Shown here: one piece after another, positions 69 to 681 of the stretch
How the letters are laid out: each line of letters starts with the position of its first letter
Numbering within the stretch: position 1 is the stretch's first letter
Origin: Girardia tigrina
Lineage: Eukaryota
Direction: 5' to 3'
Assembly: GCA_001938485.1 (NCBI GenBank)
Contig: MQRK01233312.1
Span: 1 to 52,773 of the forward strand
Length of the DNA: 52,773 bases
Position numbers and translations under genes: made by a program
The notes under the pieces: model-generated
What the model was told of the DNA's origin: nothing
The model's input: the letters and a program-made list of their open reading frames with translations, nothing else
Database searches by the model: none

Positions 69-681
69 TTAAATACAACGAATTTCTGATAATTTCCATA
101 TTGGATAATTTTTTCCATCGTTTTTTTTTCTTCCATGTAAGCATATTTTGATAAATTCTCTGGAATAATTAGACAAGCCTATTGCTGGCATGTCATGACC
201 CCTAAAATCTCTAAATTTTAATCCATCATCAGATCGAAAATATTGTTCTCTAAGCTGACTCAGCTTCCCATCTGATCTTGTTCCTATTTCTTGTAAGTTT
301 ACATTAAGAATATCATAGTCACGATCACTTATATCCTTTACATGGAAGTTGAATTTGCTCTTTCTAATATGTACCGGATCAGTCAATTCAATTAATTTTG
401 AACATTTCAAAAACTGTATCGGGTATCCCATATAGTTTGTTGATGGTGTTAAACACCAGGTTGATGGATTTATTTGTGAAGTATTCTCTATTCGCCTTAT
501 CTTTCTTAGTGAATGTTTTGTTTGAGCAGCATTTATCTCTTCAGCAACTTGGTTAGCCTTTTTAAATCTTTCATTATCAATGTCCCACTTTATTTCAGCA
601 GCAGTTTGATTCTGATTCAACGTCTTGAAATATTAAGAAAAAAAAATGAATGATGTATGGAGCGAAAAAAAAACTCACCAT
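69..681 (-). CDS. Intact spliced gene, 185 aa (MTLNQNQTAAEIKW...IWKLSEIRCI); function unknown, possibly an OB-fold ssDNA-binding protein
   Basis: Exon 1 coding part is only ATG (681-679), followed by a GTGAGT donor. The 55-nt intron (678-624) has a T-rich tract ending in AG. Exon 2 (623-69) is open for 184 codons to TAA. AATAAA lies at 40-35 on the minus strand. No stops or frameshifts, unlike the surrounding relics. The function call is inference. Confidence 0.8.

Follow-up and report, generated by a model that had tools for sequence, protein, structure and literature searches.

Polintons carry long terminal inverted repeats (TIRs), AG...CT termini and a 6-bp target duplication. A retrovirus-like integrase is taken as defining for Polinton/Maverick elements in the available portion of PMC5499653, and capsid-less Polintons are reported in that of PMC4028283. 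The accessible main texts of eight papers (PMC8502044, PMC11161782, bioRxiv 2023.08.22.554363, PMC10120064, PMC6431247, PMC4981718, PMC4028283 and bioRxiv 2025.02.07.637071) contain no mention of a Polinton ssDNA-binding protein (SSB). Nor do these main texts, as far as accessible, describe an integrase-less element combining a polymerase, an SSB and a TBP-like gene. In the yeast linear elements, a protein-primed B polymerase occurs together with an SSB, and non-autonomous members keep a polymerase of their own (PMC8472843, accessible part).

T7-like SSBs are reported in phages, Nucleocytoviricota and gamadviruses in what is available of PMC4889955 and PMC11253617, and the accessible part of PMC5686142 names a long helix following strand two of the barrel as the hallmark of the T7 type. 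As far as its available text goes, a 2016 survey (PMC4889955) sees no relationship between the SSBs of protein-primed viruses and the OB-fold SSBs found elsewhere; a divergent OB-like fold was later proposed for the tectivirus and phi29 SSBs (bioRxiv 2021.03.25.437074, available portion).

The window analyzed here is an entire contig of 52,773 nt from the AT-rich, 1.43-Gb genome of Girardia tigrina. An initial annotation had singled out an open reading frame at 69..623 as an orphan 185-aa protein with a C-terminus resembling gp2.5-like SSBs, and had suggested that it might be a replication accessory gene of a mobile element rather than a host gene. The features at this end of the window are as follows.

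1..68, minus strand: element sequence downstream of the gene, to the contig end, recognized by similarity to sister copies
69..623, minus strand: main exon, with 184 codons and the TAA stop, of the SSB-like gene
72..461, minus strand: 130-aa domain with a predicted T7-type OB fold; no acidic tail follows the last strand, where the protein stops
462..623, minus strand: variable N-terminal extension, 54 aa, with no visible constraint (dN 0.048, dS 0.050 among 10 copies)
624..678, minus strand: predicted phase-0 GT-AG intron of 55 nt (GTGAG...TTTCAAG), right after the start codon
679..681, minus strand: start codon, a one-codon first exon (AAAATG; ATG in 19/26 copies)
682..710, minus strand: remnant of an AT-rich palindromic spacer, the rest of which is deleted here; in most copies the spacer parts the SSB and polymerase starts
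713..1061, minus strand: outer ~350 bp of the TIR, with the outer end AGTAG at 1061

The open frame is real: positions 72-623 of the minus strand give 184 codons that encode the C-terminus on which the initial annotation was based, and the plus strand across 69-623 is crowded with stops. The length of 185 aa is correct provided that the ATG at 681-679, in an AAAATG context, is joined across 678-624, since the main exon alone supplies 184 codons. The putative intron contains a pyrimidine tract between GTGAG and TTTCAAG. Among 35 distinct loci sampled for the start region (26 complete, 6 without the anchor and 3 incomplete), the ATG is kept in 19 of the 26 complete copies, the GT in 25 and the AG in 23. 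The introns of sister copies are 50-57 nt long, and the polymerase gene of the same elements begins with the same layout of an ATG followed by an intron. RNA-labelled contigs of four runs contained no spliced joint for the SSB gene, and those compared with a polymerase start contained none either, so the intron is counted as predicted only. The RNA-labelled contigs span the SSB gene, retain the predicted intron and also span non-coding repeat; they are evidence neither for nor against expression.

An AF2 model of the C-terminal 130 residues, built with 32 aligned rows, reached a pLDDT of 92 and a pTM of 0.83 (a single-sequence AlphaFold model, with pLDDT 34, was set aside). When this model was compared by VIA-align with 48,161 chains, T7 gp2.5 came out best (Z 8.2, 108 residues, 2.8 Å), followed by the Enc34 SSB (Z 7.8), ASFV CP312R (7.6) and DUF2815 (7.4), all four being T7-type ssDNA-binding folds, at Z values near 8 that are within the range VIA-align calls common. 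The next fold beyond the T7-type rows had a Z of 5.1 and was followed by a tail of other OB folds; a repeat comparison gave six T7-type rows at Z 7.4-8.2 and then 3.9. Superposition of the predicted model on gp2.5/Enc34-type barrels gave an rmsd of 2.8-3.6 Å. Foldseek on the PDB ranked Enc34 first, at an E of only 0.2, and BFVD returned eight matches at E<=0.001; six of these carry names, all of them uncharacterised proteins of giant viruses. Language-model features placed the distant homologue P0026 with the phage ssDNA-binding, Enc34 and T7 SSB clusters at 0.90-0.92, with a low recognition score and with cluster matches (PF24083/PF10991/PF21265) that apply to P0026 only. Atlas matches of the window protein to discoidin-like F5/8 type C domains, at 0.88 and with 112-122 features in common, lay below the threshold of the tool and were discarded.

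A long helix (H46-58) directly follows strand E38-42 in the domain model. This strand is probably beta2, judging from the model rather than from a residue-level structural alignment, in which case the capping-helix hallmark would be present. At the level of sequence, no Pfam SSB model matched any of the 32 rows, the window protein had no Pfam match above the cut-off, and a PDB sequence search gave no match. The term orphan is thus apt for these named databases, but not for protein sets or the organism's own genome, where relatives could be found. The proposed gp2.5 likeness is favored by the structural searches but not by a profile comparison with gp2.5, which was not significant (probability 2%). 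The protein can be described as a predicted ssDNA-binding OB fold of the T7 gp2.5 type that lacks the acidic tail.

Within the domain, residues G110, K112, P120 and W122 are invariant in 32/32 aligned rows, down to 24% identity, and K or R occupies columns 19, 34, 36, 42, 76, 82, 112, 114 and 123 in 84% or more of the rows. Aromatic as well as basic positions of the domain are conserved. Column 111 was tested as the equivalent of the base-stacking residues T7 Tyr158 and Enc34 Trp150. It aligns to T7 Tyr158 in a non-significant profile alignment, and is Tyr in 13/14 distant rows and Arg in 18/18 near rows (this genome's copies), which have a Tyr at 119. An acidic C-terminal tail is absent from 16/16 proteins, which end 8-12 residues after the conserved Trp. 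In the distant homologues P0008, P0011, P0019, P0022, P0024, P0026 and P0027, an acidic patch lies N-terminal of the domain and could possibly stand in for the missing tail.

The SSB-like protein resembles T7 gp2.5 (1je5), Enc34 ORF6 (5odk/5odl) and DUF2815 (4klk, 4jg2) in its predicted OB barrel and long helix after the second strand, with Z 7.4-8.2 over 104-110 residues, and in the location of its gene next to a DNA polymerase. However, the two sides share only 7-14% identity, and the protein described here has a shorter domain, no acidic C-terminal tail and a variable N-terminal extension; its partner is a protein-primed B polymerase instead of a T7-like replisome. ASFV CP312R (8hw5), described as ssDNA-binding in the accessible part of PMC9963768, is also alike in fold (Z 7.6 over 126 residues). 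The best BFVD matches are uncharacterised giant-virus proteins with TM up to 0.77, and gp2.5-like SSBs are reported in Nucleocytoviricota and mriyaviruses (PMC4889955 and PMC11253617, available parts). These viruses, however, are larger and helicase/primase-dependent, while the SSB gene here resides in an integrated element of roughly 3-11 kb, and there is no sequence-level match between them. On the basis of the predicted fold, the protein likely works like a T7-type SSB, but we stop short of placing it strictly within that group.

The gene is one of many. At least 157 matches were found in its own genome (150 scored of 1855 candidates), many of them with stops and, among the matches listed with self left out, 68-97% identical; the main exon reaches 97.5% nucleotide identity with sister copies. 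Genome searches with two distant homologues uncovered further SSB subfamilies. Outside the genome, the 50% representatives include 10 relatives and the 90% set 18-19; no functional name is attached to any of them. Apparent long open frames of 470-1573 aa among the genome matches, examined at four such loci, were due to N runs and not to fusions. Scans of viral contigs for homologues recovered no locus, two of them reporting matches that led to none, and the sole metagenome locus was a chance match across unrelated genes (L071).

Pairwise dN/dS over the last 120 codons was 0.24-0.52 between subfamilies and 0.26-0.72 within them, in a sample of 38 hand-picked stop-free copies, a choice that biases the ratio slightly downward. 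In the N-terminal 54 codons, which vary in length and sequence among homologues, dN was about equal to dS (10 copies). The SSB domain is under purifying selection, and this, together with the residues invariant across the 32 rows, indicates that the ORF is more than a chance occurrence.

Sister copies of the gene sit in elements with AGTAG...CTACT ends. Around SSB genes, six elements with both exact ends could be found, and 6-bp target duplications were present in all six; other copies had one end only. The two-ended elements, each with identical 6-bp flanks, are listed here.

C191476: 8992 bp, with a TIR of at least 1.4 kb at 85% identity
C224054: about 10.2 kb
C249606: 7870 bp
C241883: 4610 bp
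C251696: 2942 bp
C216139: 8858 bp

These elements encode a protein-primed polymerase (PF03175, above cut-off in two fragments), two SSB paralogues (A and B) and a TBP-like protein (PF00352). The polymerase is absent from the window copy. Contig C252607 holds all four genes, in the order SSB-A, polymerase, SSB-B and TBP, with no unexplained long ORF left over. The TBP-like gene is divergent from SSB paralogue B and has at least 150 genome matches (150 scored of 1045 candidates). PF00352 was above cut-off for the following examples of roughly 150 aa.

L083, 5501-5962: TBP-like gene
L090, 5741-6199: TBP-like gene
L091, 5972-6442: TBP-like gene

Among the 25 copies with a readable upstream region, 14 have the SSB-A and polymerase genes beginning head-to-head on either side of an AT-rich palindrome, while five (L007, L008, L011, L020 and L037) have one common junction that deletes the polymerase and constitutes an amplified SSB-only derivative. 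Inversions are frequent at the palindromic spacers. The gene is a multicopy component of a mobile element, located beside a protein-primed DNA polymerase and with dispersed matches, rather than a single-copy syntenic host gene. Neither of the two outcomes that would have refuted the initial annotation, a fold other than OB and a single-copy host gene, was thus obtained. A DDE transposase exon, which we considered at first, was abandoned once the polymerase and the 6-bp duplications were found.

Two further observations concern the ends. In C241883, one end flanked by the 6-bp duplication falls inside polymerase sequence (L091 3096), apparently a cryptic AGTAG-like end used at integration. The terminal repeat contains 2-4 GTTGCCATGGYAAC-type palindromes per copy, with none in 1000 shuffles each; these lie at 845-994 in the window and in the TIRs of L026, L027, L029, L076 and L086, and they resemble RFX X-boxes.

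The copy in the window is an internally deleted fragment that lacks the polymerase and the greater part of the upstream spacer. Similarity to sister copies extends over 1-710 and breaks off there. About 30 nt ahead of the ATG, the gene is joined to the terminal repeat, which begins AGTAGGGGAAAAATG and contains GC-rich 21-bp repeats and four X-box-like palindromes; this junction is unique to the window among 40 scored matches. With these losses, and with private changes at conserved columns, the copy is probably dead. Its other end and target duplication are not visible because the element runs off the contig. The interpretation in the initial annotation is supported, with the qualifications that the acidic tail is missing, that ssDNA binding is predicted and that the copy in question is a product of deletion.

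At 1327-1417 on the minus strand, a short way beyond the element end, is a candidate HDV-like ribozyme that scores 29.9 bits against a cut-off of 50 for Rfam RF00094 (E 0.1, full model length). The remaining window was read by eye as transposon debris, with Penelope-like, mariner/Tc1-like and retro-integrase-like fragments at 1370-1738, 6389-6922, 8475-9582, 26938-27627, 40820-41386 and 43063-43825. Only one piece was confirmed, Pfam assigning 40820-41383 to DDE_3.

The SSB-bearing elements share with Polintons/Mavericks (adintoviruses) the protein-primed PolB, long TIRs, AG...CT ends and 6-bp target duplication. Unlike Polintons, the two-ended elements have no integrase (absent in 6/6 by tblastn with this genome's Polinton integrase) and no capsid, penton, ATPase or protease marker between their ends, with SSB and TBP-like genes instead. 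In 20 stretches anchored on the terminal repeat, 12 of which are about 2 kb or shorter, virion genes were found in none and this polymerase in three. Complete elements may have been overlooked, because the assembly is in fragments and rich in N. The elements are also like the yeast cytoplasmic linear plasmids pGKL1/pGKL2 (pGKL2 having an SSB by description) and the transpovirons, as capsid-less linear replicons with inverted repeats. However, those replicons are not described as integrating with 6-bp duplications, and the SSB elements have nuclear-type intron signals.

Capsid-bearing Polintons are present in the same genome, with 127 capsid matches and 18 ATPase matches. Six long ones encode an integrase, capsid, ATPase, penton and protease and mostly their own polymerase, which is 27-36% identical to the SSB-linked polymerase; weak polB_V matches of 26-41% inside SSB elements are cross-matches between the two polymerases. 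No SSB match lay inside the six that were examined. As capsid-bearing Polintons apparently do without it, the SSB is not needed by every such polymerase. In one resolved case their ends begin AGTAGTGAAAAAAT, similar to the SSB-element termini. Separately, these ends have a roughly 190-bp self-complementary unit bounded by AGTAG...CTACT (L107 8214-8404, L109 4289-4479).

Capsid-type genes were found near an SSB in three contigs. In C240398 an SSB-family end breaks an ATPase gene and in C230421 a capsid-type end adjoins TBP, both of which we read as nested insertions; C82426 was left without assignment. On this reading the nesting is mutual, with SSB-family ends in ATPase and penton genes and one capsid-type end beside a TBP gene (L105 1072, L114 3802 and L102 4778-4982). 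ORF pieces that by eye resemble Hsp90, ubiquitin and 14-3-3 occur near SSB copies (L105 2440-6122, L034) and are possibly captured host fragments.

These findings are best explained by a family of elements in which long inverted repeats enclose genes for a protein-primed polymerase, one or two SSBs and a TBP-like protein, the two-ended copies examined carrying neither integrase nor virion genes. In the mechanism we envisage, the polymerase would prime on a linear form of the element, at its AGTAG ends, and copy it by strand displacement. The SSB would coat and protect the displaced strand, as SSBs do in strand-displacement replication of other protein-primed replicons (PMC4889955 and PMC8472843, available parts), and may stop repeats and hairpins in it folding back on themselves. 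The integration step that leaves the 6-bp duplications would likely be supplied in trans by the integrase of the capsid-bearing Polintons, whose ends start with a similar sequence. Taken together, the tail-less T7-type SSB in abundant Polinton-related elements, the mechanism of replication and integration in trans, and the deleted state of the window copy form an account that we hold to be probably correct, with greater confidence in the fold and context than in integration in trans.

What these elements are in relation to Polintons is a more tentative matter. They may be a self-replicating satellite of Polintons, a separate lineage with neither integrase nor capsid but with a polymerase, two tail-less SSBs and its own TBP, which borrows the integrase, and perhaps the capsid, via common end sequences and has reached thousands of copies; we would put this at somewhat short of an even chance. 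It is also conceivable, if rather unlikely, that the SSB is genuine but the short elements are either one part of an element in two segments or deletion products of a complete Polinton of their own lineage, with integrase and capsid, that the fragmented assembly conceals. Internal deletion is indeed rampant, the two-ended elements ranging from 2.9 to 10.2 kb and the polymerase-less junction recurring in 5/25 copies, and loss of the capsid among Polintons is known from the available text of PMC4028283. However, none of the six two-ended elements and none of the 20 anchored stretches (many short) has virion genes inside, the four-gene copy leaves no long ORF to be explained, and those capsid-bearing Polintons that were examined encode a polymerase distinct from that of the SSB elements. 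The two-segment idea likewise gained no support from the 20 anchored stretches, most of which are short.

A role for the OB fold in some other nucleic-acid transaction, such as strand annealing or recombination between repeats, end recognition, or dsDNA binding with the TBP-like protein, appears doubtful. The tail-less Enc34 SSB binds both dsDNA and ssDNA (PMC5686142, accessible part), and the family here is also tail-less; moreover, two paralogues per element, with paralogue B paired with TBP, suggest divided labour, and inversions at the palindromic spacers are frequent. Nevertheless, the close folds are all described as ssDNA binders, and the head-to-head placement of paralogue A and the polymerase is what one would expect if the two were partners in replication. 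That the ORF belongs to the host or arose by chance in repeat DNA, a reading to which the spliceosomal-type intron signal and the lack of a named family match might point, is already refuted by the dispersed matches, many with stops and always in element context, and by the purifying selection and confident fold.

Polinton replication has been proposed to displace single strands, yet the literature searched holds no Polinton SSB; an SSB of the T7/giant-virus type beside a Polinton-type polymerase, as predicted here, would fill this gap. Since the SSB domain is small and expressible, the Polinton replication model becomes directly testable. The SSB also links Polinton-related elements to the replication genes of giant viruses. 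If the elements are indeed a satellite lineage, they would add an extra layer of parasitism among the virus-like transposons of animals, and would be an animal counterpart of the transpovirons and the dependent yeast linear plasmids.
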